Shown here: positions 1 to 16,654 of the stretch, in pieces
Layout: every line of letters begins with the position of its first letter
Numbering within the stretch: position 1 is the stretch's first letter
NCBI GenBank assembly: GCA_963843145.1
Contig: CAWJJC010000027.1
Coordinates: 1-64,000 of the forward strand
Direction of reading: 5' to 3'
Source: an uncultured delta proteobacterium
GTDB taxonomy: Bacteria; Desulfobacterota; RBG-13-43-22
Length of the DNA: 64,000 nt
The notes under the pieces: model-generated
Seen by the model: only the letters and a program-made list of their open reading frames with translations
Told to the model about the DNA's origin: nothing
The model's database searches: none
Made by a program: the position numbers and the translations under genes

Positions 1-332
1 CATCCTGATCGCGGATACTCTGCGCCATAGTAAATGAATTCCTTCTCTTCTACACTGAAGAAAGTTTGAAAGGTGGTGGCCGCCACCCCATTAAAGAGTT
101 GGTTCTTAGACGTTGGATCATACAAAATCTGAAGACTATTCAAGTCTGGGGTACCATTGTTATTTATGTCATTTATTCTAAAGGTAAATTCCCCACCATT
201 ACCGCTTTGATAAATATCCAAACCGTAGTTACTGAATGTTACTGTATCAGCTCCAACCGATTGCGTCCATGAACATAATGCCACTGCTATGCAAATCACC
301 AAAACAAACTCCCTCAAAGCGTACCTCATCAT
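1..332 (-). CDS. Secreted protein, probably PEP-CTERM type (5' part only; runs off window)
   Basis: Not in ORF track. RBS AAGGGAGG, then MMRYALREFVLVICIAVALCSWTQSVGA (signal peptide)...SGNGGEFTF...TTFQTFFSVEEKEFIY; open to window edge. Sigma-54 promoter and TGT-N11-ACA boxes upstream. Confidence 0.6.
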   Translation of the reverse strand, partial: MMRYALREFVLVICIAVALCSWTQSVGADTVTFSNYGLDIYQSGNGGEFTFRINDINNNGTPDLNSLQILYDPTSKNQLFNGVAATTFQTFFSVEEKEFIYYGAEYPRSG

Positions 333-398
333 GTTTACCCCCCCTCCCTTTTTTTCTTTATATAAGTTGTTTGCAAGCTAACATTTGAAAGCCATATA

Positions 399-488
399 TC
401 ATGCCGTGTGAATCATAATGTAGGCATTCGCACAGAGCGGAAGCGCAAAAAATATTACAAAAAGTAAAATTCCGGTTAATTTTTTCAA
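399..488 (-). pseudogene. Signal-peptide-only remnant of a secreted protein gene (29 aa)
   Basis: GGAGG RBS, TTG start, MKKLTGILLFVIFFALPLCANAYIMIHTA*. Confidence 0.45.
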
Positions 489-594
489 TTTTTACCTCCC
501 ATAAACAGATAAATATCAAAATCCATTGCAAGTAGTAAAAGTAGTATTTTTGTATTTATAGCACGGTATTTTGTATGCTTGAACCAAGTATGTA

Positions 595-610
595 TGCAAT
601 TATTGTTCCA
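595..610 (-). promoter_or_regulatory. Sigma-54 (-24/-12) promoter
   Basis: Minus strand TGGAACAATAATTGCA = GG-N10-GC. Confidence 0.7.
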
Positions 611-689
611 GACTTCCGTTATCGTCATAACTTATAGAATTAACAACATTTTTATAAAAATGCCAATATGCTATCGAAAAGCCAAGAGA

Positions 690-781
690 TGTAAGGTTTC
701 CCGACATAAATTTGCGTTTATTTATAACACTTTGATTTATTTAGAAATATAGAATTCATGATATTGTAAAGTTTTCCGACA
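690..781. promoter_or_regulatory. Two enhancer-binding-protein sites TGT-N11-ACA (PrsR-like)
   Basis: TGTAAGGTTTCCCGACA (690-706) and TGTAAAGTTTTCCGACA (765-781), upstream of the sigma-54 promoter. Confidence 0.6.
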
Positions 782-986
782 AATCCGCTGATTATTAAAC
801 TTCTTGATTGAAGACGGGGCATCTTCCGGGAATCAAGACCTAAAAAATATTATAAAAAATAAAGATTTGTTGCTATGGGAAAAAGAGGAATTTGATGTAC
901 TCCCCATTGTAGGACAAAAGACGATGTTGGATTGGATCTATTGCATTTCTTAATATCCTTGTCAAGCGGAAAGTTTTCATTTTGAG

Positions 987-1150
987 ACAACCAAAGACAA
1001 AAGACGATCTCTCACAGAGCCCACAGAGATCGCAGAGAATAAATAATTTTGAAAAATCGGCGTCTTAGCTATTTTTCAAAAAGTAAATTCGTCTTTCCCT
1101 GCGTCCTCGTCGGATTCGAGCGAAGCGGGCGAGAGATAAAAAGAACACCC
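987..1150 (+). repeat. Internally deleted copy of the ~390-bp MITE family
   Basis: Matches segments of 5944-6333 (aaagacgatctctcacagagcccacagagatcgcagag...cgagcgaagcgggcgagagataaaaagaac). Confidence 0.75.
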
Positions 1151-1176
1151 CACTCCTTCCGGCCGCAAAAGGGAAG

Positions 1177-1200
1177 GGGGACGTTGTTCACTCCATTCAG
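1177..1200 (+). repeat. RAYT-associated end motif GGGGACGTTGTTCACTCCATTCAG
   Basis: Variants at 5146, 10788, 20472; degenerate inverted copy overlaps the RAYT stop (gaatgaaatgaac, 2224-2236). Confidence 0.7.
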
Positions 1201-1242
1201 AAATATATTTACAGGAGAAGCCAAAGAGAGTAGTAAGGTCCT

Positions 1243-2229
1243 ATGCCAAGGCACGCCCGTTTAGATGTCCCCGGTACCCTGCACCATGTCATGGTCCGGG
1301 GGATCGAGGGGACCAATATCTTCCAGGATGAGGAAGATCGCCAGGCCTTCATTGATCGGATCAGGTCCCTGGTCCGGGAAACCGGGACCCGTATTCTGGC
1401 CTGGGCGCTAATGGACAATCACGTTCATTTGTTGTTGATCAGCGGACCAGCCGGGCTGCCGACTTTTATGCGGCGCTTGTTGACGGGGTATGCCGTCGGC
1501 TTTAATCGGAAGCATAGCCGATTCGGACACCTGTTCCAGAACCGTTATAAATCCATCTTATGTGAGCTGGATCCGTATCTGCTGGAGTTGGTCCGCTATA
1601 TTCACCTCAATCCCCTCCGGGCGGCGGTAGTCAAGGACCTGGAGGAATTGGAAAATTATGCCTGGTGCGGTCATGGGGCCTTGACCGGCCGGCAGAAGAA
1701 CGACTGGCAGGAAAAAGATTTTGTGCTCGGCTTTTTCGGGGGCAAAGAAAAGAAGGCCATTAAGGCTTACCGGGAATTCATGGAAGCGGGGAAAGATCTG
1801 GGTCCCAGGCCGGAGCTGGTCGGCGGCGGATTGATCCGCAGTCTGGGGGGCTGGTCGGCCGTATTGTCTCTCCGGCAACAAGGCGAAAGGGAGGCCTATG
1901 ATGAGCGGATCCTCGGGGGCGGCGATTTCGTCCAGGCGGTCCTGGAAGAGGCGGATCAAAAATTGGCCCGGCAAATTCGAGCCCGGGAAAAAACAGGGTC
2001 CTTGGCCCGAATCATTAAAGAACGCTGCCGGGAAGCCGGGGTCAATGAGCAGGAATTGAGATCCGGGAGCCGCCGCCGGGCCGTATCGGAACTTCGACGA
2101 AGCCTCTGTGTTTATTTATACCGGGAACTGGGGATCCCCCTGGCGGAGATCGCCCGGCAGGTGGGGGTGGGGACCAGCGGAGTGGCCATGGCGATTAAGG
2201 GGTTGGAAGCGGGAAATAAAAACGAATGA
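1243..2229 (+). CDS. RAYT-type Y1 HUH transposase with C-terminal HTH
   Basis: MPRHARLDVPGTLHHVMVRGIE start, HUH motif MDNHVHLL, GHLFQNRYKS, catalytic Tyr in VRYIHLNPLRA, C-terminal LAEIARQVGV. Confidence 0.9.
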   Translation: MPRHARLDVPGTLHHVMVRGIEGTNIFQDEEDRQAFIDRIRSLVRETGTRILAWALMDNHVHLLLISGPAGLPTFMRRLLTGYAVGFNRKHSRFGHLFQNRYKSILCELDPYLLELVRYIHLNPLRAAVVKDLEELENYAWCGHGALTGRQKNDWQEKDFVLGFFGGKEKKAIKAYREFMEAGKDLGPRPELVGGGLIRSLGGWSAVLSLRQQGEREAYDERILGGGDFVQAVLEEADQKLARQIRAREKTGSLARIIKERCREAGVNEQELRSGSRRRAVSELRRSLCVYLYRELGIPLAEIARQVGVGTSGVAMAIKGLEAGNKNE

Positions 2230-2415
2230 AATGAACCAAGGGCCGTTCATCTATACGGAAATCGGTTCAGACCAAGATCATCGAAGATTCAAAAAAGCAA
2301 TAAGGGGGGCAAAGGGTCTGTATGAATTTGAGGAGCCGTTTAAATCGTTAGCACGGGGATGGCTGCAGGAAGATCTTGAAACTAACAATAGATCCATGGA
2401 CAAGGAGCAAAATGT

Positions 2416-2664
2416 ATGAAAAGAAAAAAGTGTAATTTCTGCGGCAGCTTGGAATATGAGGACCTTAGGACCGAGTATCTTTATTCGTATAAAGGAAATT
2501 ATCTCCTTGTCCCCAACACCCCAGTCGAGGTTTGTTTGAATTGTGGTATGGTCTATTACGACGCCAAAGTGCTCAAAGAGATCGAAAGGCGGTTCTTTGC
2601 CATCCAGAAGAAAGAAGAAAAGCCAGACGCATATATTGAGCTGCCGCGGCTGGCTTTTGGTTAA
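2416..2664 (+). CDS. YgiT-type zinc-finger protein (MqsA-like antitoxin); only a 3' stub of the upstream toxin remains
   Basis: CNFCGS...PVEVCLNCGMVYY; GGAG RBS; overlaps stub ending ...WLQEDLET... Confidence 0.8.
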   Translation: MKRKKCNFCGSLEYEDLRTEYLYSYKGNYLLVPNTPVEVCLNCGMVYYDAKVLKEIERRFFAIQKKEEKPDAYIELPRLAFG

Positions 2665-2674
2665 TCAGATAATT

Positions 2675-2722
2675 TGCCTATTCCGCTCAAACTGACCACC
2701 GGTTCCGGATAAACTGACCATC
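2675..2722 (+). mobile_element. IS21-family terminal remnant
   Basis: TGCCTATTCCG then two copies of aaactgacca, resembling IS21 subterminal repeats. Confidence 0.5.
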
Positions 2723-2848
2723 CGATAAGAGGGGACGTAAGAGGGGACATCCTATAACGACCCTGTCAAGAGTGGAAAGTCCAGTTGACAATGATCTGAT
2801 TTAATGACAAAATTTTAAGAAAAAGCTTATTTTGAGGGAGCTTTAATC

Positions 2849-3058
2849 ATGCCTATTACCTTTCAAGAAGCATTGGATACGATCGAATCCTTGCCGGAAT
2901 ACCAGCAGGAAGACCTGATCGATATCATTCGTCGTAGATTAATTGAGCAAAAAAGGGACACCTTGGTCCTCCGTGTTCAGGAGGCCAGGGCCGAATACGC
3001 CCAGGGAAAGACAAAAGAAGGAACCGTGCAAGAGCTGTTGAGTGATCTCTCCCAATGA
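2849..3058 (+). CDS. Putative antitoxin
   Basis: 69 aa acidic helical protein overlapping the RelE-like toxin start (ATGA). Confidence 0.75.
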   Translation: MPITFQEALDTIESLPEYQQEDLIDIIRRRLIEQKRDTLVLRVQEARAEYAQGKTKEGTVQELLSDLSQ

Positions 3059-3339
3059 GAAAACTTATTTGGGGCAAGACCTTCATCCGGGCGGTAAAAC
3101 GGGCAAACCGCCGACACCCAGACCTGTTGGAGATTTTGCCAACCACGTTGCAGCTCTTATCCGAGGACCCCTTTGCCCCTCCATTAGAAACGCACAAACT
3201 TAAAGGGAAGTTGTCCGGTTCCTGGGCCTGTAAGGTGGGATACGACCTGCGTATTATTTTTGATTTTCTCAAAACCCAGGAGCAGGGGGAAGATCATATC
3301 TTACTTCTCGAACTTGGATCCCACGAGGAGGTTTATTAG
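3055..3339 (+). CDS. RelE/YafQ-family mRNA interferase toxin
   Basis: THKLKGKLSGSWACKVGYDLRIIF...LGSHEEVY. Confidence 0.9.
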   Translation: MRKLIWGKTFIRAVKRANRRHPDLLEILPTTLQLLSEDPFAPPLETHKLKGKLSGSWACKVGYDLRIIFDFLKTQEQGEDHILLLELGSHEEVY

Positions 3340-3379
3340 GAAAGAAAAGGGGTCACCCATTAAAAGGCCTCTGTCAAGA

Positions 3380-3802
3380 GAAAAGACAATCCCGGCTGCA
3401 AGAAAGAGCATTTTTTCTTACAGAGTCTGGACCTGATAGAACGATTCCCAGGCCCCCAACTCCTTTACCATTGCTGAAATTTCAAAGGTTGTGGTGTCAG
3501 CATTCTTCTTCACTGCACCGGTCACCCATCAGGATCAAGGTCATGGAAAGATATCGCGGGTACCAGTACACCGCTTTACAGTATTTCCTTAAGACCCCTT
3601 CCGCTATTAGCGGACCAGAAAATCTTCAGTACCAGACCGCGCCCAAAGGTTCAGTGACAAATCTCGTGGTTAAAGACCAACCCGTTACTGGTTCAGGGTC
3701 TGGGCAGTAAAAAACCTGGAAGCCTTTTGGGTGGAGCGGACGGCCAATCAAATCTCGTGGTTTTACCAACCCCAAATCAGGACTCGCCGCTCCAGCCAAC
3801 TC
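3380..3802 (-). ncRNA. Putative IS110 bridge/seek RNA
   Basis: Stem-enclosed loops at 3732-3794 (AGATTTGA and GGGGT, target match) and 3652-3690 (near copy); ATGGGTGA at 3522-3529 (donor match). Confidence 0.65.
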
Positions 3803-4822
3803 TTAGGCAAAGACCTTATCGGAATCAAAGGGTACTTGATCCCGCATCACAAAATAAGCCGCCCGGGCCAGTTTATGAGCCAGCGCGCTGTGGGCCACCA
3901 TGAAGTTGGTCTTCGTCGATTTCTTATTGTAGTAAGCCCTGGCCGGATTTTCGTAACGGCGAGCCAATTCAGCCGCCTCCGAGAAGGCCCAAGCCAGGTA
4001 TTTGTTGCCGTTCTTCTTATTCCCTTTCCCCTTGGTCTTTTGGTTGCTGGTCCATTGAGTCGGCACCTTCCGACAGTACGATACATAGTTGCCCACCCTG
4101 GTGAACCGTTCTATCGGACCCGTTTCCAGCATGATGGTCAGGGATAATATCTTGCCCACCCCGTCAATGGTTTGGAGGTATTTGTAGGGGGCCTTCAACT
4201 CCACCTTGTCTTCCACAAATTTTTCTACTTGTTTTATTTGCCGGGTCAGGAAGTCAATGGTCTCCTTGCTGACCCTCCCGCTCAACGCCAGGTCTTCATT
4301 CCCTTCCAAAATTGGAGACACCTCATCCTTTCTAAGCCGTTTCATCTTATTGGCGCTTAATTTTACCCCGCTATTCCGGCTGATAATATTCTGCAAACTG
4401 AGCAGAAGCGAGGTTCTCAGCCGGACGAGATGTCCTCTCTTTCTCAATAAGTCCCGGACCGGCCGCTCTTCTTTGGGATAGATAAAGCCCTCCGGTAAAA
4501 TTCCTAAGCGCAGCATCTCCGCCAGCCAAAAGGCATCATGTTGATCATCGGCGTGCTTTAACCCCGAATACTGTTCCATCGCCGCAGGATTGGCTAAATG
4601 CACCTGGTAGCCTGCACCCATCAACGTATCCACCAGCCAGTACCAGTTAAAGGTCGATTCGACGACGATACCCACCAACTCTTTCTGAAACGGCTTCAAA
4701 ACTTCCAAGATCACTTGGGGATCATTAGGAAGTCTTTTCTTGAATACCCTTTTCCCTTGCTTATTGATAATTCCCAAATAATTGTTGTTGCCATGGAGAT
4801 CAACTCCCGCATACACTTTCAT
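3803..4822 (-). CDS. IS110-family DEDD transposase/recombinase
   Basis: YAGVDLH, VVESTFNW, KHADDQHDA; C-terminal GVGKIL...PTQWTS and KNGNKYLAWAF. Confidence 0.93.
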   Translation of the reverse strand: MKVYAGVDLHGNNNYLGIINKQGKRVFKKRLPNDPQVILEVLKPFQKELVGIVVESTFNWYWLVDTLMGAGYQVHLANPAAMEQYSGLKHADDQHDAFWLAEMLRLGILPEGFIYPKEERPVRDLLRKRGHLVRLRTSLLLSLQNIISRNSGVKLSANKMKRLRKDEVSPILEGNEDLALSGRVSKETIDFLTRQIKQVEKFVEDKVELKAPYKYLQTIDGVGKILSLTIMLETGPIERFTRVGNYVSYCRKVPTQWTSNQKTKGKGNKKNGNKYLAWAFSEAAELARRYENPARAYYNKKSTKTNFMVAHSALAHKLARAAYFVMRDQVPFDSDKVFA

Positions 4823-5336
4823 AAGGCACCTCCTAGGGTTTGATTGATGCGCTTTCCCTAAGCATACCAGGATTAACTTTCTCTTGGTATCTGCGAGGTG
4901 CCTTTTATATGATTATCAAATCTTTAATGTTGACAATTAGGTTTCAATTTGGGGAGACCGGGACGTTGGTGCGCAGAGTTCTCAAAAAAGAGAAGCCAAG
5001 GGTGTGAGGAGGGAATCGATAGTATACGGGAAGGTTACTTCACCGCTTCCTTGGCGAAAACGCCGGGCATAACGAGGCATTTGCCCCTTAAGAAATCGGT
5101 AACGGAACGTTATCTAAAGGAAACTAAAGGGCTTTTAAAATAAAAGGGTACGTTGTTCACTTCATTCAGTAAGTCTCTGGGCTTTTTGGCCTATAAGGGG
5201 GCGGGATCGGGAGAAAGACTTTTTTTTTACGCGGATGGACACGGATACTGCTCATTTCTCAAGAAATCGGGCATTCGATTTCTATCAATAACAGAAAAGT
5301 CTTGATTTTAGACATGTAACTGTATATAGTCACATT

Positions 5337-5558
5337 ATGACCCAACGGGAAAAGCTTTTAGCCCGAGCCATGAGCAACCCGAAGGATCTTTCCTTCGGTG
5401 AATTTCAAACACTTTTACGCCAGGCGGGATGGACCTTCGATCACCAAAAAGGGAGCCATCAAATTTGGTACTCCCCGACCCGGTATCGACTCTCTATTCA
5501 GGAAGGCCGGAGCGGGAAAGCCAAGGGCTATCAGGTCGAGCAATTCCTGGGGCAATAG
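5337..5558 (+). CDS. hicA: HicA-family toxin (possibly with premature TAG)
   Basis: GWTFDHQKGSHQIWY...KAKGYQVEQF; frame continues EVENEKA after the TAG. Confidence 0.85.
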   Translation: MTQREKLLARAMSNPKDLSFGEFQTLLRQAGWTFDHQKGSHQIWYSPTRYRLSIQEGRSGKAKGYQVEQFLGQ

Positions 5559-5568
5559 GAGGTTGAAA

Positions 5569-5913
5569 ATGAAAAAGCCTGATCGGTTCGACGGATATAC
5601 CGTCAATGTGTTTTTGGATGAGGATGGGGAATATCTGGCTCATTTTGTTGAGTTGCCAAACGTATCCGCCTTTGGGGAATCGCCGGAAGAGGCGCTAAGC
5701 GAGCTGACCACGGCCTGGGAAGGCGTGAAGGAAAGTTACAAAAAGCACGAAGAACAGGTTCCTGTGGCACCGGCGAGAAAGAAATACAGTGGTCAATTCA
5801 ACGTTCGACTCGATCGGCGGATACACCGCGCCCTGGCCATTGAGGCGGCCAAAGCCGGTATATCCTTAAATGCCATCGTCTCGCAGAAGCTGGCCAAAAA
5901 CACTCCGGCATAG
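5569..5913 (+). CDS. hicB: HicB-family antitoxin
   Basis: AFGESPEEAL...YSGQFNVRLDRRIHRALAIEA...SLN; GGAGG RBS before ATG 5569. Confidence 0.9.
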   Translation: MKKPDRFDGYTVNVFLDEDGEYLAHFVELPNVSAFGESPEEALSELTTAWEGVKESYKKHEEQVPVAPARKKYSGQFNVRLDRRIHRALAIEAAKAGISLNAIVSQKLAKNTPA

Positions 5914-5943
5914 GGAGATAGGATTTGGGCTTTTTCTTGGGCA

Positions 5944-6333
5944 TATTAACGGTCTCAAAATAATATTGACAGGGTTCCTTAACGTCGCCAGTAACAACCA
6001 AAGACAAAAGACGATCTCTCACAGAGCCCACAGAGATCGCAGAGAATAAATAATTTTTGATTGCCGCTGAGGGGCCGGCAATCAAAAAAAGTCTCCCGCC
6101 CCACTAAAAAAGGGTATTGGCCGTAGGCCTTCAGGAAATGTTTCATGGCCGAAGGCCTTTAGCGGCTAGGAAACATTTCCTCGCCGGAGGCGTGAGTTGT
6201 TTTGAAAAATCGGCGTCTCAGCGATTTTTCAAAAAAGAGATTCGTCTTTCTCTGCGCCCTCTGCGAACTCGAGCGAAGCGGGCGAGAGATAAAAAGAACA
6301 CCCAGTGCAAATACAATTATGAGACTGTTAATA
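5944..6333 (+). mobile_element. MITE with TIR TATTAACGGTCTCA / TGAGACTGTTAATA and internal palindromes
   Basis: Related copies at 987, 20015 and 34107-36440; same TIR at 21691-21853. Confidence 0.7.
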
Positions 6334-6512
6334 CCTCCCCTGTAGGCCTGACGGACGGGGCAAGAGGGAAGATGGGAGATGGAAGCGATTAGCTGCATGG
6401 GTCGTTAATTACCCCTTTATTTTGAGAGGAACTTGACGGAATAAAGCAACCGGAAAGGGCCATAAAACGGGGGTAATTAACAAAAGGAATGGCGGGATTC
6501 GAGGATTTTTGA

Positions 6513-6764
6513 TCACGATAAACCAACCGGTGGAAGTAGCGTAGTAGGGGGGTCCGAGTCGGGATAGAACCCGATGCGACGGTGAGTGAGACCATTGCGG
6601 GAGAGTATCCGGTGGATGGAACTGACCGAGGGCAACGGTTGGATCCCCAGTAGGTTCAAGCGTTGGCGAATGGCTATCGCCCCACAAGGCAACCCCCGGT
6701 TATAGAGATACAGCCTTTTCCAGACAATCAACTGTTCGATTTCGGCAGGGAGGAAACGGGCCAT
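6513..6764 (-). CDS. Small HTH-like transposon-associated protein
   Basis: CGAIAIRQRL...PLPSVSSIHRILSRNGL resembles transposase HTH segments. Confidence 0.55.
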   Translation of the reverse strand: MARFLPAEIEQLIVWKRLYLYNRGLPCGAIAIRQRLNLLGIQPLPSVSSIHRILSRNGLTHRRIGFYPDSDPPTTLLPPVGLS

Positions 6765-6827
6765 AGACCCTCCGGGAAAGACCCGGGTCCGGGGAACGGT
6801 TAAGTCCCCCCAACCCGGGAAGAGCAG

Positions 6828-7631
6828 TTACCCTTCGAGATTTTTCACCTTGAGGACCATGTCGGCGGTAACGGTGCGTTTCTCAGCGAAGAGGGCATAG
6901 GTGAGGGCCGCTTCGGTGACGGCGCCGATTTTCCGGGGGATGCCGAAGCTGACCTCATGGACGGCCCGGAGGGCCTGCTCGTCGAGGAGCGGTTCCCGGG
7001 CGCCGGCCAGTTGGAGGTGATGAGCCACATAGTTTTTGGTTTCTTCGGGTTGGAGACCGGGGAGATGGTAGCGGATGGCAATCCGCTGCTGGAAGGGCTC
7101 CATGACGGCAAAGTCCATGATCCTTCTCAGGTCGGACTGGCCGGAGAGGATGAGGATAAAGGGGTCATAGGAGTCCATTTTGAAGTTGGTCAGGAGCCGG
7201 AGTTCTTCCAGGGGGCCGGTTTGGAGGAGATGGGCCTCGTCGATGATCAGGAGGATGGTTTTTCCGGCCTGCTCTTTGGAGTCCAGGAGGGTTTTCTGGA
7301 TCTGGAGGTAGATGGCGCTTTTGGAGAGTCGGGTGGGCAGGCCCAGGAGCCGGTTGAGATGATACAAGAGATCGGCCCGGCTGAGGGTGGACAGGGGGGT
7401 GTAGATGGGTCGGAAGAGGTTTTCATTGAGCCGGTCCACATAGGCCCGCAGGGCCAGGGTTTTGCCTACCCCGGGATCGCCGGTGAGCAGCAGGATGCCG
7501 CCCCGACGCTTGATATATTCCAGACGGGCGAAGCACTCTTTCAACGGTTCCGTTTCGAAGAGGTCCTGGGTTTTCAGGTTCTTGTCGAAGGGGAAACGCT
7601 TGAGGCCGAACCAGGCCAGGAGATCTTTCAT
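6828..7631 (-). CDS. ExeA-like AAA ATPase (transposition helper)
   Basis: Walker A GDPGVGKT, Walker B IIDEAH, GIPRKI. Confidence 0.9.
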   Translation of the reverse strand: MKDLLAWFGLKRFPFDKNLKTQDLFETEPLKECFARLEYIKRRGGILLLTGDPGVGKTLALRAYVDRLNENLFRPIYTPLSTLSRADLLYHLNRLLGLPTRLSKSAIYLQIQKTLLDSKEQAGKTILLIIDEAHLLQTGPLEELRLLTNFKMDSYDPFILILSGQSDLRRIMDFAVMEPFQQRIAIRYHLPGLQPEETKNYVAHHLQLAGAREPLLDEQALRAVHEVSFGIPRKIGAVTEAALTYALFAEKRTVTADMVLKVKNLEG

Positions 7632-8885
7632 GACCGGACCTTTTTCTTATGGAAGGAGAGCTGGGTGTTGACCTGCTGGGGCCGGAAGGTGCGGGCATTT
7701 TCCCTTTTGTCGAGGAGCTTGATCCGGCCCACTCGCACCCCGTTATCGTAGAGGTAAAGCTCCTGGGGATCATCCACCGGATGACGGAGCTCGATCTTCT
7801 GGCGGATATAGGCGGCCGGCACTTCATAGAGAGCGCCTTTGAAGCTGATGGTGGCGTCATTATTGACCACCCGCTCGTGACGGACGAGGAAGATCTCATC
7901 CAGTTCGGCCTTGGAGAGCCGGCGGATCTCTACCCGGGCGACCGCGGACTGGTAACGGTCCATCGGGCTTTCCCCGAGGCCGCTATGGAGTTTGTGGTGG
8001 TAATCCTCCTGGAGCCAGAGCCAGAAGGCCTGGTTGAGTTCGGCCAGGCTGATCCCGGCCTGGATCCCGGCCAGGAAGCGGTCCCTGACCGTGCGGAAGA
8101 ATCGTTCCACCTTGCCGCGGGAGGGACTGTCGTAGGGTTTGGAGTGGATCAGGGAGATGCCGGCCAGGGCGCAGCTTTTGGCCAGCAAGTCCGAGGAAAA
8201 GGTGGGGCCGTTATCGAAATAGAGGCGCTTGGGGAGACCGTAACTCAGGAAGGCGTCCTTGAGGACGGGGGTCAGGGCGCTGATGGTCTCGGAGGCGTTG
8301 AAGGCCTGGCCCACCACCAGACGGGAGTGATCGTCGATAATCGCGCACAAGATGGCCTTGTGGGAGCGGTTGCCGGCCCGGACCTGGGGGCCGTGGAGGA
8401 AGTCGCCGATCCATAAATCATTGACCTGTTCCACCTCGAAGGCCTTGCGGACATCGGTGCGTTGTCTGCACCGGGAGCCAGCCCTTCATTTTAACCAGGC
8501 GCAGGACCGTATTGTAGTGGACGGGGGGATCGCCCAGGAGATGCAATTCCCCCAGCGTTTCATAAAGTTTCTGGACCGAGTAGTGGGGGTAGGCCTTGGC
8601 TTGGACCTCGATCGCCATTTGTAAGGAATCCTCCAGACGCCGGGGTCGGCCGCCGTCGGAGCGCTTCCGGGGTTTAAGGGCCTCAAAGCCCTGCCGACGG
8701 TATTTGCGGAGCCAGGTCTTCAGGGTGGAGACGCGGATCTTCCTGACCCCGTACCGGGGAAAGGTCAATTCCTGCCCGGCCTGTTTCCGGAAGTAGTCGT
8801 TCTGGGCCCGGGCCGGTTCGGCCAATACGGGGGAGATGATCTGATAACGTTTGAGGGCGATTTTTTCTCGGATGTCTTCTTCCAT
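7628..8885 (-). pseudogene. DDE integrase-core transposase with Mu-type C-terminus, frameshifted near 8430-8460
   Basis: Two ORFs: HTH N-terminus, then LWIGDFLHG, IIDDHSR, YFDNG, GKVERFFRTV. Confidence 0.85.
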
Positions 8886-9111
8886 GGGTTGTTCCTCCTA
8901 AGAGTTTTTTTTGGGGTTTGTACCCCGTTCGTGAACCCAGGAATAACCCATTCTGTTCCCGGCCGTTAGCAAGGTTGTGTAAAACCATTTCCCGAAACCG
9001 GGTGCTGGATTGTTGATGGGGGGGTGGTTGGAGCAACGGGAGAGATAGACCGGCCGAAACCAGATCCCTTTAGGGGTTGGTTCGGGGGCGCCGGGGGTCG
9101 GTTGGACCTGT

Positions 9112-9749
9112 TTAGGAGGCCCCGGAGCGCTTAGGCCCCCGCTGTTGAGCAGGGGTTCCCCACAGAAACCGTTTGGTGGTCCGACTGAAGCGATTGATGA
9201 GGTCCTGAAGCCTTGGACCCCAGCGGATCTCCGGGTTCCAGCCCAGGGAGAGGAAGTAGGCGGCGACTTCCTCCCAGGCTGCGCCGGGGCGCTGGGCCGT
9301 CCGGATACCGCTCAGGTCGTACCAGTGTCTCAGCACGGCGTGGGCACGCTGAAGTCCGCTGCGTACCAACACCAGCCAGCAGGCCACCAGCCAAGGGGTG
9401 ACCAGGCTGTCCGGGTCCACCGCCAAGACGGCGCCTTGAAAACCCTGTTCCCCTTGCTGCCGGGAGGCCAGGCCCAAAAGCAGGGCGCCGATGATGGCCG
9501 CCAACGTGTATTGGCAATAGGGGGCCAACTGGGTCGGCAACAGGGAAAACGTTAGCCGCAGAAGACGGCAGAGAAAACGGGCCACCGGAATCCGCTCTTT
9601 CTTGAACTCCGGAAAGAGCTCTTGGGCATAACGCCAGTAGCAAGGAATCGACTGATAGCAATCCGGACGATGGCAGAGGGGACAGTCCGGTCCCAAAAAG
9701 GCGAAAAAATTAATCTGACCGGACTTCGAATGATTCCTTGTATTCCCAA
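9112..9749 (-). pseudogene. Transposon-associated Zn-finger (DUF6431-like) protein, frameshifted near 5' end
   Basis: CPLCHRPDC...RFLCR...TFSLLPTQLAPY. Confidence 0.6.
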
Positions 9750-10102
9750 ATCGAAGCCAGTGTGTTAGGGTAGGGAAGCTGAATCGTTCAGCGCCTTGCC
9801 CACCGGAGGCAGGACATTGGCCTCGACAACCTTTTTCACTGCTTCCGGTGGGTCTTGGTTATTTTAGCGAGGTTAATTCCTGACCTCGTTATTTCGCCTG
9901 CCCTTATACCACCGGTTGCTTTATCTTGTAAATATTCCTGATTTTTCCAGAGTTATTGCGTGGGAGATAACAAAAGGGAGAAAAAACCGGCAATACCAAA
10001 GCCATTCAGACCACGGCGGTGGTCGCTTTGGTGGTAAGTTCACTTTTTGTCATAAAAGATTTAAGCTTGACATTCGGACAAAAATGACCGATATTTAGAA
10101 CT

Positions 10103-10223
10103 ATGACAGGGAACGAATTTTTCCGAAAAATTAAGATTTCTCGGGAATCTGAAAGATGAACTCAAAAAGGGAACGCTCCATGGAATGCTCGATCAGCTTG
10201 GCCTAAGCCTTGATGATCTTTAG
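10103..10223 (+). pseudogene. hicA: HicA toxin with central deletion
   Basis: MTGNEFFRKIK joined out of frame to LKDELKKGTLHGMLDQLGLSLDDL*; GSH core absent. Confidence 0.7.
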
Positions 10224-10232
10224 GAGGGATTA

Positions 10233-10784
10233 ATGCAAGGTTTTATATATCCTGCCATACTTACACCAGATGAGGCTGAAGGGGGCTTTACGGTCAGGTT
10301 CATTGACCTTCCTGAGGCAATTAAAAAAGGGAATGACGTTGAAGATGCTTTAAGAGAAGCCTCGGATTGTCTTGAGGAGGCCATTGCCAATAGGATTGTA
10401 ATGGGGCTGCCCATTCCAAAACCTACTCGAATCCAAAAAAGGCGATACCCTGTAACCCTTCCCGCTCAAACTGCTGCAAAAGCCGCTCTTTACTTGGCTC
10501 TTCAAGAGGCTAAGATCAACAAGACGGAACTTGCGAAGCGCTTGCGTTGTGATGAAAAGGAAGTACGTCGTTTACTTGATCCTCATCATCCATCGAAGCT
10601 GCCAAGGATTGAAGCTGCAATAGCCGCTATGGGTCGAAATTTGATTGTAGGTCTTCAAGTCGCCGTTAAACTAGTCAAAGGGACCTTCCAACTTCGAGAC
10701 GGGCTGTGGAGATTTAATAGGAATAACCGGGGTCGCCGTATCCCAGGTTTTTCCACTTCGGTCAACACTAAGATAAGGTGGTAA
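10233..10784 (+). CDS. hicB: HicB-family antitoxin with HTH (tail reads through a junction)
   Basis: YPAILTPDEAEGGFTVRFIDLPEA...ELAKRL...VRRLLDPHHPSKL. Confidence 0.85.
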   Translation: MQGFIYPAILTPDEAEGGFTVRFIDLPEAIKKGNDVEDALREASDCLEEAIANRIVMGLPIPKPTRIQKRRYPVTLPAQTAAKAALYLALQEAKINKTELAKRLRCDEKEVRRLLDPHHPSKLPRIEAAIAAMGRNLIVGLQVAVKLVKGTFQLRDGLWRFNRNNRGRRIPGFSTSVNTKIRW

Positions 10785-10787
10785 TGT

Positions 10788-10897
10788 GGGACATCTTCAC
10801 TCCATTCAGTAACTTCCCACCGGCGCTCTGGTCAACGCCATGGCCACCCCGGAGGAGCCATCCCGACCTGCCGGGCGACCTCGGCCAAGGAAACCCT
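10788..10897 (-). pseudogene. 3' fragment of a RAYT plus its end motif
   Basis: Minus strand VSLAEVARQVG..SSGVAMAL followed by ctgaatggagtgaagatgtccc. Confidence 0.7.
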
Positions 10898-11131
10898 TTT
10901 GCCGATTTTTTTCCCGGCTCAAATCGGTAATACCAAACAGACTACTCAGAGTGTAGCCTCGAAAAGCCAACATATTTAAATAATATAATATTTTTATAAG
11001 ATTAGCCGCTAATTTGGGGTTAAAATGGCTGTTTTCGAAGGGGGATCAGTAGTTGGGCTTTCGAGGCTGACGGAAAGGAGGGGAAGTATATTTTCGTTTG
11101 CTTATTATACCTTTTCAGGTATAATAAGTTT

Positions 11132-11356
11132 GTGACGAAACAACCAGAAAAACCGCTCGTATGGTTGGGCGGCAGCAAAAAGGACCTGATGTCTCTGCCG
11201 ATGAGCGTTCGCAAGTTCTTTGGTCATGCCTTGGACTTTGCCCAGCGCGGGGATCAACACGGCGCAGCCAAAGTTCTAAATGGACATCCTCCGCGCGCGC
11301 CTGAAAGTCGCGGAAAAACTTTCACGGGAGATGAGGGATGAACAAGCGAATGATTG
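11132..11356 (+). pseudogene. RelE/Gp49-like (DUF891) toxin with central deletion
   Basis: KPLVWLGGSKKDL...FGHALDFAQRG...AKVL joined out of frame to MDILRARLKVAE. Confidence 0.75.
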
Positions 11357-11435
11357 ATGGCGTAGAAGTGGAGATGAGTTCCGGCAATGTTTTTGCCGAC
11401 CTTGGCTTGCCTAACGCGGATAAACTGAAAATTAA

Positions 11436-12974
11436 CCTGAATGTTGCATAAAAAAATGGCCTTTTGGGGAAAGGTCGGCTAGGCCGCTTCCTTGAACGCA
11501 TCCAGTAATTGGGTAAAATCCCTTTGGACGGCCTCATTGGCACTCAGGGTAAGCGTCAATTTCCCTTTGGGAGTCGTTAAGCGACCGGCTCTTTGAATAA
11601 TGAGGTGTCGCAAGGTCTTTAATTCCTCAAAGCACCAGAGCGGGGATCTTTTTTCGGTCGTTCCTCGATCCTGGAGGCGGGCCACCATTTGAATTTCCCG
11701 GGTCAAATTATGAGCCAGGATCGCAGCCAGGTTATAGAACTGGTTGCCGCCCAGGCGCCGAACGGGGATGTAATCCATCTGAGCCTGGGACTTTAGTTCG
11801 CCAAAGAGGCCTTCTTGGTCGGCGCGACCGTTGTGGAACATTAAGACTTTCTTGGCCTTGACCCGTTTGTTAGTGACGATAGCTTTGAAAGCATAGCCCT
11901 CTTCGTGGGGCTCGAACAGATCCAGTTGGATCGGGCCGCGGAAAACCAGGGGAACGCGTTGGCGAATCAGCAGGAAACGAAATCGACTGTCCCATTTTTT
12001 GGGTTTCCAGAAGGTTTCAAACCAAGACCAGCGAGCGTCCATCCGTTTCCAGCGTTTTCGTTCCTGGATCAGGTGCTTCAACTCGGTAAAGCGTTCAAAG
12101 GGCACCGACAGGCTGAACTCGACTCCCCGGGCTTCCAACAGAGTCACAATCTCATCGTTAAAGAAGGCGCTGTCCAGGCGGGCTTCGATGGTTACGCCGG
12201 GCAAAGCCTCCTGGAGGACCTGGAGACATTGGGTAATAAACGCTTTGGCCCCGTTGGAGTCATGCACATTGCCGGGCCGGAACAAGACATCCAACACCTG
12301 GCCGGTTTGAGCGATGGTGCAGAACAAGGGGTAGTAGCCGCGGGCTCCCTTTTTTTTCTTGTTGTAGCCTACGGCGGTCCCTTCAGCCCGACGCTGGGTG
12401 GTCCAGATCACCGATCCGTCGAAATCCAGGGTCAACCGGGCCGGGGATAATTTCTGTAAACGTTGGATCACCAGATCGCGAACGAGAGCGCGCACCTTGT
12501 CAATCGCCACTTGATCCACGCTCCGTAACGCTCGGGACACGGTGGAAACATCCGGCAGACGCTGGAGTCCCAGCAACCGTTTTACCAGGGGATCATCCTG
12601 GTAATAATCCAGGTCTCGGAGTTTGCGATAGCCCATAATCAGGTGCACAACCAACAGCAGCATGATGACTTGGTGACCAAAGATCTCAGAAACCTTCAAC
12701 TGCGTAAAACACTTTTTGAGCCTTTCTTTGAGTCGTAATTGCTGAAAGACCGGTTGATAGATGACGAGTCCGGCAAATGAGGTCAATCGTTGATCTTCGA
12801 ACTTGATTTCGGGAATTTTAAACACTCGACTGAAAATATGCTTTTTGCTAAACTTCACCTGGGGTGGCCTCCTGATTTGGGTTTTGTAAGACGTGGTAAT
12901 CTCACAATAGCCAATAAGGACGCCACCTTCAACTGTTTTTAGACCAAATAAGCCATTTTTTTATGCAACTACGG
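11436..12974 (-). mobile_element. IS1380-family element
   Basis: Imperfect TIRs CC..GTTGCATAAAAAAATGGC at both ends. Confidence 0.85.
11479..12858 (-). CDS. IS1380-family transposase
   Basis: LTLDFDGS, GYYPLF, RPGNVHDS, RLDSAFF, FHNGRADQEGLFGELK. Confidence 0.9.
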   Translation of the reverse strand: MKFSKKHIFSRVFKIPEIKFEDQRLTSFAGLVIYQPVFQQLRLKERLKKCFTQLKVSEIFGHQVIMLLLVVHLIMGYRKLRDLDYYQDDPLVKRLLGLQRLPDVSTVSRALRSVDQVAIDKVRALVRDLVIQRLQKLSPARLTLDFDGSVIWTTQRRAEGTAVGYNKKKKGARGYYPLFCTIAQTGQVLDVLFRPGNVHDSNGAKAFITQCLQVLQEALPGVTIEARLDSAFFNDEIVTLLEARGVEFSLSVPFERFTELKHLIQERKRWKRMDARWSWFETFWKPKKWDSRFRFLLIRQRVPLVFRGPIQLDLFEPHEEGYAFKAIVTNKRVKAKKVLMFHNGRADQEGLFGELKSQAQMDYIPVRRLGGNQFYNLAAILAHNLTREIQMVARLQDRGTTEKRSPLWCFEELKTLRHLIIQRAGRLTTPKGKLTLTLSANEAVQRDFTQLLDAFKEAA

Positions 12975-13250
12975 AAGTCGGGTCTCGTGATTGAAATTGC
13001 CAAGGCTGTGCGTAATCTTGGTTTATCGCAAGAGGAAGCTGGTCGCCGTATGGGGCTGCCTCAACCAAAACTATCCGGCCTGTTCCGTGGGGATTTTTCC
13101 AACGTATCTGAGCGCAAATTGATGGATTGTTTAAACCGGTTAGGTTACGATATTGAGATCAAGGTTAAGCCTTCAGCCGAACGGGTTGGGCAACTGTTGC
13201 TGGCTGTAGCCTGAATTGGGAGGCAGCTCCCGCAATTTGCGGACGATTTG

Positions 13251-13350
13251 CGTAGTTTCTGAGTAAACTTAGCAGAAGGTATTTCCACTCCAAGACCAAA
13301 GCGGTAAAACCCCTCCGGCCGCGGCCACCCCCTCCGCCAAATTCAATTAT
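13251..13350 (+). repeat. ~100-bp direct repeat (second copy 16521-16613)
   Basis: cgtagtttctgagt...aaaacccctccggccgcggccaccccctccgccaaattcaatta. Confidence 0.8.
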
Positions 13351-13384
13351 GTACTTGACAACATAATGTATTGAAAGACATAAT

Positions 13385-13562
13385 ATGACCAGGCAGTGGA
13401 TAGTTCTGTTTCATGAGGATTTCGAACCGGAGTTTGATGCCTTGCCGGAAGAAGTGCAGGATGAATTGCTGGCTCATGCCAAATTACTCGGACATTGCAA
13501 AAGCCGACGAACGATTTGACAGCCACCTGGCCGGTTTGAAAGAAAGGAAGCCTAAACCATGA
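13385..13562 (+). pseudogene. RelE/HigB-like toxin with central deletion
   Basis: MTRQWIVLFHEDFEPEFDALPEEVQDELLAHAKLL joined out of frame to IAKADERFDSHL. Confidence 0.75.
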
Positions 13563-13885
13563 AGACCATAAACCAGAAGGTGAAAAGCCTTAGCACCAGG
13601 CGTCGGAAGAAGATCGAGGCCCGCGTCGCTGCTCTCATGGGGGAGGAGATGACCCTTCAGGAACTTCGACGAGCGCGTAAGATCACTCAGGTCCGCCTGG
13701 CAAAAGCCCTCGGCATCAGCCAGGACGGCGTATCCCGTCTCGAAAAGCGAAGTGACCTTCTGCTTTCGACCATGAGAAAGAGCGTCGAGGCCATGGGAGG
13801 CAACCTGTCCCTCGTCGCTGAATTTCCCGATCGGAAGCCGGTCATTCTTTCCGGGATTGCTACCGTAGAGCCAGATCCCGCCTAA
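13559..13885 (+). CDS. XRE-HTH antitoxin
   Basis: LQELRRARKITQVRLAKALGISQDGVSRLEKRSDLLLST. Confidence 0.9.
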   Translation: MKTINQKVKSLSTRRRKKIEARVAALMGEEMTLQELRRARKITQVRLAKALGISQDGVSRLEKRSDLLLSTMRKSVEAMGGNLSLVAEFPDRKPVILSGIATVEPDPA

Positions 13886-13915
13886 AATCGCTCAGGACAG
13901 CCGATCTTCCTAGTC

Positions 13916-14506
13916 AATTGGAAAATTATGCCTGGTGCGGTCATGGGGCCTTGACCGGCCGGCAGAAGAACGACTGGCAGGAAAAAGATTTTGTGCTCGG
14001 CTTTTTCGGGGGCAAAGAAAAGAAGGCCATTAAGGCTTACCGGGAATTCATGGAAGCGGGGAAAGATCTGGGTCCCAGGCCGGAGCTGGTCGGCGGCGGA
14101 TTGATCCGCAGTCTGGGGGGCTGGTCGGCCGTATTGTCTCTCCGGCAACAAGGCGAAAGGGCGGCCTATGATGAGCGGATCCTCGGGGGCGGCGATTTCG
14201 TCCAGGCGGTCCTGGAAGAGGCGGATCAAAAATTGGCCCGGCAAATTCGAGCCCGGGAAAAAACAGGGTCCTTGGCCCGAATCATTAAAGAACGCTGCCG
14301 GGAAGCCGGGGTCAATGAGCAGGAATTGAGATCCGGGAGCCGCCGCCGGGCCGTATCGGAACTTCGACGAAGCCTCGGTGTTTATTTATACCGGAAACTG
14401 GGGATCCCCCTGGCGGAGATCGCCCGGCAGGTGGGGGTGGGGACCAGCGGAGTGGCCATGGCGATTAAGGGGTTGGAAGCGGGAAACAAAAACGAATGAA
14501 ATGAAC
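13916..14506 (+). pseudogene. 5'-truncated near-identical copy of the RAYT gene
   Basis: Nearly identical to ~1647-2237; lacks HUH and catalytic Tyr. Confidence 0.9.
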
Positions 14507-14701
14507 AAAGGCCAGTAAAGGGGCTGAATTCGGGCTTATATGGCCCTTTTTTTTGGGGGGGGGCAAAAGCTGGGTTTGGGCATTCCAACGGCAAGAGGAG
14601 CCAACCGCCATTACCTGCCGGGCCAGATTTGGCACATCACCCATCATTAAGCAAGAGTATTTTTGGTTCGCCTATCAACGGGAATATGATAGAATTTCTT
14701 T

Positions 14702-15094
14702 ATGAATAAATCTGTGGAGAATTGGTTAAGATCAAGCGATTACGACTGGAAGACAGCTTCAGCCTTATATAAAAGTGGACGGTATCTTTATGTGATTTTT
14801 ATGTGCCACCTTTCCGTTGAAAAGGCGCTCAAGGCCTTGGTTAATTTAAGGACAGGACAGATTCCACCGAAAACACATGACTTAAGGGTTCTGGCCCGGT
14901 TGACGGGAATGAATATCCCAGAGGAATATGGTATGCTTATCAGTCGACTGAACGAGGTGAGCATCCCTACCCGGTATCCCGAAGATATCAAACGGCTGGT
15001 CAAACAGTACAAGAAATCGGTAACGGAACGTTATCTAAAGGAAACTAAAGGGCTTTTAAAATGGATAAAGAAAAACGAGACGTTAAGCGAATAG
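14702..15094 (+). CDS. HEPN-domain protein
   Basis: FMCHLSVEKALKA, PPKTHDL, TRYP. Confidence 0.9.
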   Translation: MNKSVENWLRSSDYDWKTASALYKSGRYLYVIFMCHLSVEKALKALVNLRTGQIPPKTHDLRVLARLTGMNIPEEYGMLISRLNEVSIPTRYPEDIKRLVKQYKKSVTERYLKETKGLLKWIKKNETLSE

Positions 15095-15393
15095 TCGATG
15101 AACTACTGGTTCGGTTATCGTCAAAAGGTATTGAAATAAATAAACTGATCCTCTTCGGTTCCAGGGTAAGAGCAGAAACCGGTCCATTCAGCGATTGGGA
15201 TGTCGCAGTTGTATCAAAAAGCTTCAATCGGATCGGATTACTGCGACGGCAAGAGTTGCTCGGAGAAGCTATTTGGCAGATGACGTATCCTGTTGAAATC
15301 CTCGGGTATAGCTTAAGAGAATATGAGAGCGCTTCTCGTGGATCCTTTCTTTCTACTATACGGGCATCCGGGCAAATAGTTTATGAAAACTAA
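15061..15393 (+). CDS. Minimal nucleotidyltransferase (HEPN partner)
   Basis: LFGSRVRAE...SDWDVAVVS. Confidence 0.9.
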   Translation: MDKEKRDVKRIVDELLVRLSSKGIEINKLILFGSRVRAETGPFSDWDVAVVSKSFNRIGLLRRQELLGEAIWQMTYPVEILGYSLREYESASRGSFLSTIRASGQIVYEN

Positions 15394-16032
15394 ATATCGT
15401 TTTATTGAACGCATCTCCCCGGAAAAAAAGGTTCAAGAGTCCGAGTAAAGGGGACCTTCTTGAATTAGTTGACTTCTGGGACAAAGACTTTTTTGGCACG
15501 GATTTCACGGATGGGCACGGTTAAAACCATTCATTTCTCAAGAAATCGGGCACTCGATTTCCTGAGACCGGCTGCCGCCGGGGGCGCGTAAAGGGGGACA
15601 TCCTATATTCTTCCTGTCAAGAGGAAATATTTCATTTTGAGAAAGATAACGATTTTGATGGCATAGGAATTGGGCCATTTTTTGACCGCACCTCCCCTGT
15701 AGGGCTGACGGATGGGTGAGAGGGAAGAAGGAAGCGATTAGCTACACTTGGGTCGAAAGAGGGAAGATGAAGCGATTAGCTGCACTTGGGTCAGATGGAA
15801 GATGGAAGAGTGAAGATGGAAGAAAAAACCGAATACCCACCATTCAACCACGTCTTGTCCTTTTAAGTTTATTTTTGCCATGAAAAAGGGGTCAGAACTT
15901 TAAAATTGACAAAAGTGAAAAGGGGGAGACCGAGCAGAAAATCATTTATGGGCGAGACAATTGATTGAGGGATCCCGCGAAGTGGAAAGTACTGTTGAAT
16001 TTTCCCGATGTTAAGTACCCGAAGGAAGGCCC

Positions 16033-16302
16033 TTAGAAGTCATTTAAATCATGTGCAGGAGGGAGAGATACTTTTCGACAGATAGCCCGATGACCTTGAT
16101 TTTCATCAAACCCGGCTTCCTGTAATAAACCCTCCAAGGTCCCAATCTTTTGTGCCTCTTCTAGATTGATTTGGATCACTTCTCCCAAATTTTTTTTGGC
16201 CTGCTCCATCGTTTCTCCACAGGAGGCTATATCGAGTTCCGGGCAATAGGAGACATACATGTTCCCCTCTCTCCATAATTCTTCCGTTAGCTTGAGTTTC
16301 AT
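16033..16302 (-). CDS. HicB-like antitoxin, no cognate toxin
   Basis: EGNMYVSYCPELDIASCGETMEQAKKNL. Confidence 0.75.
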   Translation of the reverse strand: MKLKLTEELWREGNMYVSYCPELDIASCGETMEQAKKNLGEVIQINLEEAQKIGTLEGLLQEAGFDENQGHRAICRKVSLPPAHDLNDF

Positions 16303-16654
16303 ATGTCCTCCTGTTTCTTAAAAAATTGAGCTAATTCTACCATATTACGCAGAAAAGGGGAAGAAAAGGGTTAATGTGCCCCTCCGGGGTCAGGTCATTA
16401 AAATTAACAAAACCGAAAAGGACAAAGGGTTCGAGGAAAGATAGCTCATCATATTGGGACCGGGTCGGGCCCAATGCCCTTAACTTATCGGTAAATCCCC
16501 TCCACCCTCAGCCTATAATACGTAGTTTCTGAGTGAACTTAGCCGATTTCCACTCAAGGACCAAAGAGGTAAAACCCCTCCGGCCGCGGCCACCCCCTCC
16601 GCCAAATTCAATTAGACAGGATAAACAGGGTGGATGGAAATCAGGAAACCAGCG

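Follow-up and report, generated by a model that had tools for sequence, protein, structure and literature searches.

The stretch of DNA considered here, hereafter the window, is the whole of positions 1 to 64,000 (forward strand) of contig CAWJJC010000027.1 from an uncultured delta proteobacterium (assembly GCA_963843145.1). On its minus strand, at 3354-4918, lies an intact insertion sequence of the IS110 family and of IS1111 type, of which the genome holds a single full copy. The element measures 1563 bp, counting one of its two TG cores (4918-4917 and 3355-3354); with an A after each TG, its boundary is ambiguous by 3 nt. Its sole long open reading frame (ORF), running from 4822 to 3803 on the minus strand, encodes a transposase/recombinase of 339 amino acids, with 447 nt of non-coding sequence after the stop codon against 94 nt before the ATG. 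It is the longer of these two regions, and the guide RNA that it would encode, that forms the subject of this work. The limits of the element, taken from the sequence and from the conserved ends of its relatives, also agree with break points on other contigs: in copies of ~96% identity from groundwater and coal metagenome contigs, similarity ends at 3345-3354 and 4919-4924, which fits these boundaries, and one of those copies has the same half-sites in a different context.

The transposase carries both domains of its family, the N-terminal RuvC-like DEDD domain (Pfam DEDD_Tnp_IS110, PF01548; 58.6 bits against a cut-off of 29, residues 5-146) and the C-terminal Transposase_20 (PF02371; 51 bits), and it matches ISCro4 (6.8e-14) and IS621 (9.4e-13) in PDB. 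A HMMER alignment to the C-terminal domains of these two proteins lays its WTSN on their YESG, serine on serine, and the aligned serine we take to be the nucleophile. Relatedness to the IS1111 group was judged against the transposase of IS4321, to which the protein is 24% identical over the full length (E 2e-12, residues 6-329 against 8-329). The non-coding region downstream of the gene, the subterminal repeats and a promoter at the circle junction are marks of the IS1111 type, and on these the element belongs to the IS1111 group as Siddiquee et al. define it (PMC11187229).

Across the relatives the ends of the element are conserved, as TG followed by ATAATCAT on the left and TTTAATGGG followed by TG on the right, while the flanks differ. 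The left end (4895-4916, minus strand), conserved in 60 or more relatives, consists of an 8-nt terminal extension, ATAATCAT (4916-4909), and a subterminal inverted repeat, ATAAAAGGCACCTC (4908-4895). The right end (3356-3377, minus strand), likewise conserved in the alignment, holds a -35 box TTGACA (3377-3372), the other subterminal repeat, GAGGCCTTTTAA (3371-3360), and the terminal ATGGG (3360-3356), an extension of 5 nt (plus TG). The two repeats pair as TAAAAGGC/GCCTTTTA, perfectly over 8 bp and further with one gap, and those of relatives match at up to 13 of 16 positions. Joined in a circle, the ends would place TTGACA 17 nt before GATAAT, made of GA (3354-3353) and of TAAT (4915-4912) from the left end; this junction promoter, first proposed in a sequence-only reading of the locus, is confirmed in the sequence, and its boxes are also kept in relatives. 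Both junctions share only TG(A), as in an insertion without target duplication beyond the core, and the relatives follow the same logic of half-sites. Because the right flanks of some relatives start with C or T and not with A, we read the shared core as the dinucleotide TG and not as TCA/TGA, and the A after TG on both sides in the window is then a coincidence of flank and left end. Among the relatives, which we cite by locus number, L054 and L026 have the last ~22 nt of the right end in tandem, in 2 and 3 copies; their -35 box, CTTGACA, includes TTG directly followed by AC, like the commonest target core of the clade, and may invite self-targeting.

The element interrupts a palindrome. Its right target half-site, ACCCC (3349-3353, minus strand), is part of a dispersed palindromic motif of ~50 nt that lies 10-35 nt past the stop codon of a YafQ/RelE-like toxin gene (3055-3339), and its left half-site ends in TTGTCAACATTAAAGATT (4919-4936, minus strand), whose GTCAA pairs with TTGAC across the insertion point. 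The flanks thus read GGGG plus TCA at 3349-3355 and TCA plus AATCTTTAATGTTGACAA at 4916-4936. As the sequence-only reading had it, excision that keeps one TCA (1563 bp out) restores a 25-nt site resembling motifs further along the window, at 21 of 25 positions for the one at 15888 and 19 of 25 for the one at 16386; no match to the restored 25-mer occurs in the window at up to 3 mismatches, the other copies of the motif diverging further. Scanned with a degenerate form of the motif, the window gives 4 occurrences where 0.05 would be expected, and a loose form has 11 matches genome-wide. What had been called a target array is of modest size: the window has three copies of the motif, and the rest of the genome a few more.

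Right after the stop codon comes the first part of the guide RNA, a target-binding module that we call loop 1 (3727-3799, minus strand). Its base stem pairs GGAGCGG (3793-3787) with CCGCTCC (3739-3733) and encloses a 5' guide, GGGGT (3773-3769), complementary to the right flank ACCCC; a cap hairpin, TGGTAAAACCA (3768-3758), followed by CG; and a 3' guide, AGATTTG (3755-3749, with an A to 3748), which equals the left flank plus TG and is followed by an invariant ATTGG. Loop 1 thus matches both half-sites on opposite strands, as the sequence-only reading had noticed, with guides 30-54 nt past the stop codon and the top-strand match 5' of the bottom-strand match, which is the order reported for IS1111 seekRNAs (PMC11187229). 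The 3' guide extends with AT, the first two bases of the left end; this AT is invariant and may be structural.

A second target-type loop of the same architecture follows. It had been placed at 3652-3690; it does exist, and the whole module, loop 2, spans 3705-3630 (minus strand). Its base stem is built around CCAGACC/GGTCTGG, its 5' guide is (C)GGGT (3684-3680, GGGT at 3683-3680), its cap hairpin is TGGTCTTTAACCA (3679-3667), again followed by CG, and its 3' guide is once more AGATTTG (3664-3658, with a T at 3657). Beyond it, at 3537-3629 (minus strand), stand the conserved hairpins CUGAAGAUUUUCUGG and GGUCCGC...GCGGA and a stem of AGGGGUC (3599-3593) with GACCUU (3542-3537), which surrounds an insertion of ~45 nt that our element has in common with its two closest relatives only; one pair of this region (248:303) is CG in 17 sequences, UA in 14 and AU in 3. 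The third guide, GATGGGTGACC (3520-3530, minus strand), comes next, and directly after it a hairpin GGUG...CACC (3493-3519, minus strand), of which pair 116:140 is GC in 19 sequences and AU in 10. Pairing of UCUUUACUGC, which precedes loop 2, with GCAGUGAAGA, which comes after the third guide, would form a long-range stem; it has some compensatory changes as well as A.C mismatches in several lineages, and competes with the better-supported GGUG/CACC hairpin.

The third guide had been seen in part, as a match of ATGGGTGA at 3529-3522 to the donor end. The match is real; it is in truth 10 nt long, ATGGGTGACC at 3529-3520, identical to 3360-3351, and it corresponds not to the donor end alone but to the integrated junction, that is the terminus of the right end, TG and the first two bases of the flank (2-3 across the clade). 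The reading that we favour, and hold to be highly probable, is that of an intact IS1111-type element whose guide RNA, common to a whole clade, combines two target-type loops with a guide for the right junction.

How unusual is such a layout? A scan of one genome per species, confirmed by tblastn, gave 261 stretches, from which 78 loci were kept at 64-72% amino-acid identity, mostly in Nitrospirota, Desulfobacterota and Geobacter-type genomes; 5 of 41 related genomes had a match too, including relatives of 80% (full length) and 88% (partial) identity. The non-coding region of the 62 relatives with a recognisable right end has a median length of 409 nt (range 374-1554, 45 of the 62 within 370-460 nt), and given this distribution the 447 nt of the window are typical. 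Some relatives (L040, L042, L044, L047-L051, L057 and L074) carry insertions that put loop 1 200-1300 nt from the stop codon, and the RNA module would accordingly seem to tolerate separation from the transposase gene.

An alignment (A1) of 40 distinct non-coding regions yields a consensus structure in which loop 1 is composed of a base stem, an internal loop and a UGG...CCA cap, and loop 2 repeats the design ~100 nt on; 3' of loop 2 come two small hairpins, a third stem and then a conserved single-stranded segment. Over these 40 sequences 96.7% of the paired cells are filled by pairs, against 90.0% in column shuffles and 33-49% with slid partners, and 21 pairs are changed on both sides, against 10.8 in shuffles, none of 500 of which was as high. 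Compensatory changes fall in 8 of the 11 base-stem pairs of loop 1 and in 6 of the 8 of loop 2, and the GGUG/CACC hairpin covaries too. A covariance model of loop 1 (R1, 81.9 bits in the window) matches 80 of the 87 fetched loci, missing a relative of 34% identity, a fragment, a disrupted copy, three distant plasmid relatives and IS4321, whilst a model of loop 2 (R2, 66.8 bits) matches the window and 82 of the 87 loci, always ~100 nt after loop 1. By eye, the same three parts are present in plasmid elements of Paraburkholderia (47% amino-acid identity) and Undibacterium (44.5%). On this comparative evidence the three-part layout is a conserved design of a large clade that takes in Nitrospirota, Desulfobacterota, Geobacter relatives and some plasmids of Betaproteobacteria. 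The earlier suggestion that the second loop is a duplication, an expansion peculiar to this element, is not borne out, as a region of ~400-450 nt with both loops is the norm of the clade. Nor could loop 2 be demonstrated as a module-level duplicate of loop 1: the loop 1 model gives it only 9.1 bits (E 6.6 over 64 kb, rank 22 of 30), and identity is limited to the inner part of guide, cap and guide. The two appear to be twins in design, not demonstrably recent duplicates.

If these loops carry guides, the guides should change with the sites into which the relatives have inserted. The sequence-only reading would have been refuted by a lack of such covariation, and on this count it stands: the guides of both loops do covary with the flanks. 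Guides and flanks were parsed for each locus and distinct guide-site combinations counted (L050 and L080, whose loop 2 was mis-parsed, were left out of the right-flank count). The 3' guide of loop 1 matches the 5 nt before TG perfectly in 23 of 42 combinations, and in 33 when G.U pairs are allowed, with 0.79 mismatches on average against 2.51 in shuffles (0 of 5000 as low). For the 3' guide of loop 2 the match is perfect in 11 of 42 (18 with G.U), with a mean of 1.40 against 2.25 (again 0 of 5000 as low). Against 6 nt of the right flank, in two registers, the 5' guide of loop 1 has a mean of 1.05 against 2.06 in shuffles (0 of 5000), and that of loop 2 a mean of 2.00 against 2.39 (5 of 5000). 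More telling than these figures, in a qualitative way, are the lineages with unusual targets: where the right flank is CAT.., TCC.., TCCCC, CCCTTT.., CAC.., CATTAAA.. or TCAAG.., the 5' guides of both loops have changed to match it. One identical RNA serves sites of AGATT and AGACT (L034/L035), which fits a tolerance of U.G pairs.

The third guide, too, follows its surroundings. It reads GAUGGGUG plus 2-3 bases (window 3530-3520); in relatives the two bases after its TG are the first two of the right flank in 13 of 14 distinct combinations, covering four dinucleotides, and a change of GGG to GGA in the right end is mirrored in it. Since its tail tracks the flank and its GGG or GGA tracks the end, the third guide matches the integrated right junction and not the circle junction, and covariation is thereby observed for all three parts of the RNA. 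We read it as a left-donor guide that would bear a handshake-like, product-matching extension.

These data allow us to weigh what else loop 2 might be. One idea, put forward in the sequence-only reading, is that it arose by recent duplication and widens the RNA to a multi-target guide. There are, after all, two target-type loops, the 7-nt left guides of the relatives differ between loops in 35 of 49 distinct guide sets, and at 6 of 42 sites, such as those of L021, L069, L082 and L088, the flank fits loop 2 better. Yet at 22 of the 42 sites, where the loops differ, loop 1 is the better fit, and loop 2 has the advantage in only 4 once G.U is allowed; the layout is ancient and clade-wide; and in our element AGATTTG is identical in both loops and the right guides nearly so, which points to one target. 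We therefore regard a multi-target guide as very improbable here, and multi-target behaviour as at best a minority feature among the relatives.

Could loop 2 instead be a donor-binding loop in the sense of IS621, its likeness to the target a coincidence? It does occupy the position of the IS621 donor loop, being the second of the internal loops and built on the same stem and cap plan, and Durrant et al. give IS1111 RNAs donor guides (PMC11208160). Against this, the ends of the element are almost invariant in the clade while the guides of loop 2 vary with the flanks; neither of these guides matches ATAATCAT, its complement or AATGGG; and the donor-type match, ATGGGTG, is found beyond loop 2, ~130 nt downstream. 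A donor role of this kind thus seems to us most unlikely. The description of the locus as an IS110 element stands as to the family, here of IS1111 type, and as to a guide region after the stop codon. The guide would work like a bridge RNA but has not the IS621-type layout of one target and one donor internal loop, for both loops carry guides that track the flanks, and the only donor-type guide found lies outside them.

In a third alternative the guide-like segments of loop 2 have ceased to pair with DNA, and the loop is either a scaffold for structure or processing or a paralogue in decay. A one-loop seekRNA of 82 nt is enough for ISEc11 (PMC11187229), flanks fit the guides of loop 2 less well than those of loop 1, and the 9.1 bits obtained with the loop 1 model are a low score. 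However, loop 2 has been kept from 44% to 88% amino-acid identity, with its compensatory base-stem changes and an invariant cap, and its guides have co-changed with retargeting in at least 7 flank classes, which decay would not yield; we consider this alternative unlikely.

To return to the reading with two target-type loops and a junction guide, we picture its working as follows. After excision the joined ends would form a strong promoter, from which the transposase gene and the structured guide RNA downstream of it, of ~300 nt (about 3802-3490), could be transcribed. The 5' guide of loop 1 would pair with the top strand of the right flank (ACCCC) and its 3' guide with the bottom strand of the left flank and core (AGATT-TG), making loop 1 the standard IS1111 seekRNA or target-binding loop and the probable selector of the empty target. 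Loop 2, with the same architecture and target-type guides, would in our favoured view provide the other recombinase dimer with a target-type recognition unit, the second in the RNA. The single-stranded third segment would match the insertion product, the integrated right junction, much like the handshake guides of IS621, whose positions bias the reaction and correspond to its products (PMC13626964). Loop 2 and the third guide, we infer, most likely hold the flanks and right junction of the resident copy, or form a second target-type duplex in a synaptic tetramer; alternatively, within the same reading, the two loops might hold the two junctions. Holding of the flanks would make both excision and insertion dependent on them, as reported for IS1111 elements, in which circle formation depends on cognate flanks (PMC11187229). 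The favoured view of loop 2 would also agree with the report that two target loops are able to act together in an IS110 element (bioRxiv 10.1101/2025.10.25.684509).

We posit, tentatively, a further step that we think possible but doubtful: that two target loops and a right-junction guide are hard-wired in one transcript of ~300 nt, so that target-type recognition on both dimers scaffolds the tetramer. One loop and the third guide would then sit on the resident flank and the other loop on the empty site, or the loops would sit on the two junctions during excision, and subterminal repeats read by the protein would replace most recognition of the donor by RNA.

Several points weigh against the reading with two target-type loops and a junction guide, in whole or in part. 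Transcription, transcript ends and processing are things that we infer from the DNA, and the minimum-free-energy fold of the single sequence is not distinct from shuffles (z = -1.68); this fold pairs the guides with one another and is uninformative. Shared ancestry among the relatives means that the shuffle tests overstate significance. The right guide of loop 2 is only weakly better than shuffled and in many lineages ends in C opposite the A of the flank, and the 3' guide of this loop follows chiefly the 2-3 core-proximal bases, its distal ones staying AGA. A guide for the left end (the complement of ATAATCAT) was sought in the RNA, and the search gave only a 4-nt GAUU in a conserved hairpin loop, which is no evidence. 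The one-loop ISEc11 RNA suffices for transposition (PMC11187229), and loop 2 may therefore be dispensable. Finally, the element has but one genomic copy despite two empty perfect 12-nt sites, and its activity in this host is unproven. Both of these perfect cognate sites lie elsewhere in the genome, and one of them, at G000:C22:479678-479700, bears the whole palindromic motif; the sites at 15888 and 16386, each with one non-wobble difference from the left guide, are near-cognate and empty as well.

How does this design compare with known systems? With the IS1111 seekRNA elements ISEc11, ISPa11 and ISKpn4, as described by Siddiquee et al. (2024, PMC11187229), ours shares a non-coding region downstream of a DEDD transposase of ~339 amino acids, subterminal inverted repeats, a junction promoter, an RNA that starts right after the stop codon, the order of the matches, and site-specific insertion in palindromic repeats without duplication. 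The short seekRNA of that account has 82-96 nt and one pair of target matches, and the long form, of ~150-170 nt, is given there without an assigned role. Unlike these seekRNAs as published in the body of that work, with the supplementary folds of the long form outside the comparison, our element has a structured region of ~300 nt, a second target-type loop and a right-junction guide. With the bridge RNA of IS621 and ISCro4 (Durrant et al. 2024, PMC11208160; PMC13626964) it shares, as far as those accounts go, two internal loops of similar architecture with guides for both strands, a dinucleotide core and, possibly, guide extensions that match the product in the logic of a handshake; here, in contrast, the RNA lies at the 3' end of the element, the order of the guides is reversed, the core is TG and not CT, and the second loop reads target flanks and not the donor. 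The donor-type guide of our element, single-stranded after the third stem, is compatible with the remark of Durrant et al. on 'multi-loop' RNAs of IS1111 (PMC11208160).

IS4321 of plasmid R751 (L099), a classical member of the IS1111 family whose transposase is the 24%-identical one named above, has a single target loop with a 10-nt match of bottom-strand type and a 7-nt match of top-strand type, and an 8-nt segment equal to the right end plus the first bases of the flank. Its non-coding region, unlike ours, is ~265 nt long; a k-mer comparison (k of 6 or more) of that region gave no second loop with matches to both half-sites, and the R1 and R2 models miss it. Judged on this one outgroup, the twin-loop layout looks clade-specific. 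Perhaps a parallel of another kind is the target-binding-loop-only RNA of CazIS110-1 and its 'direct transfer' (bioRxiv 10.1101/2025.10.25.684509), where, in the preprint's account, two target-binding loops cooperate on a resident junction and a new target; a twin-loop RNA could unite these in one transcript. In CazIS110-1, an element of the IS110 group, the second target loop is however a separate truncated RNA, and direct transfer by our element would be suggested by analogy. In Rfam, no family matched the guide-RNA region at gathering score, two chance-level matches appearing at E up to 10 in 3300-4960.

The genome also holds a solo copy of one part of the element. At G000:C3:9953-10159 (L002 1501-1707) lies a right-end module of ~190 bp, 89% identical to window 3543-3354, which contains the 3' strand of the third stem, the third guide, the next hairpin and the right end, with TG on either side and then the same CCCCTTTTC flank. 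It could be the remnant of an internal deletion or a separately mobilised module, as in ISPpu9/ssr9 (PMC12288879), where, too, a terminal module of the element is described as solo in the genome; unlike there, the 190-bp piece at G000:C3 is bounded by TG and carries the third guide and right end, and is not a separate small-RNA gene.

For this genome the element is otherwise ordinary, an intact mobile element in a palindromic repeat behind a toxin-antitoxin module. It lies 14 nt past the stop codon of the YafQ-like gene (3055-3339), and the first 20,000 positions of the window (1-20000) form an island, rich in internal repeats, where toxin-antitoxin genes and genes of mobile elements lie together. 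Toxin-antitoxin genes of this island include, besides the YafQ-like one, an MqsA/YokU-like gene (2416-2664), HicA (5337-5558) and HicB (5398-5913); mobile-element genes include a Y1/IS200-like transposase with a DnaA_C helix-turn-helix (1243-2229), with which an identical repeat of 300 bp at 13916-14215 is listed, a Mu-type pair of rve and AAA_22 (6828-8434) and an IS4-like DDE transposase (11479-12858). Further along, Rfam matches at gathering score mark a tRNA at 20614-20686 (minus strand, 79.9 bits) and the catalytic domain of a group II intron at 36274-36332 (plus strand, 48.5 bits). In the integrated state (window 4936-4909, minus strand), the left end has an AATCAT 16 nt downstream of a TTGTCA in the flank, which makes a promoter-like match at 9 of 12 positions, and the target motif might be the source of some low-level transcription entering the element.

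Targets of the clade at large are often arrayed repeats of the GTCA...TGAC-CCCC type. L014, L019, L021, L027 and L043 lie in short tandem arrays, with target half-sites recurring 15-35 nt downstream, and the inverted repeat across the insertion point is exact in 11 of 44 reconstructed sites. A reading of the target motif as an integron attC site or as CRISPR was set aside: no IntI-like gene is among the ORFs scanned, and the motif has the form GTCAA...TTGAC, which the attC consensus does not resemble.

The element is a further member of the known IS1111 type, and in the literature we found no description of a clade-wide layout of twin loops and junction guide, with the proviso that the figures or supplements of PMC11187229 and PMC11208160 may show second loops. 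The use of bridge and seek RNAs as tools for programmable DNA insertion is recent, and almost all of the mechanistic work has dealt with IS621-like elements; the IS1111 side is poorly understood, both in the role of the long seekRNA and in the recognition of the ends. The natural variation in this clade offers a testable design, in which the two loops and the third guide lend themselves to reprogramming one at a time and past retargeting shows which positions change together. If the idea of an RNA that scaffolds the tetramer through target-type recognition on both dimers is true, RNA-guided recombination would have a third architecture, in addition to the bridge RNA of IS621 and the one-loop seekRNA, and this could explain why the excision of IS1111 elements needs cognate flanks.

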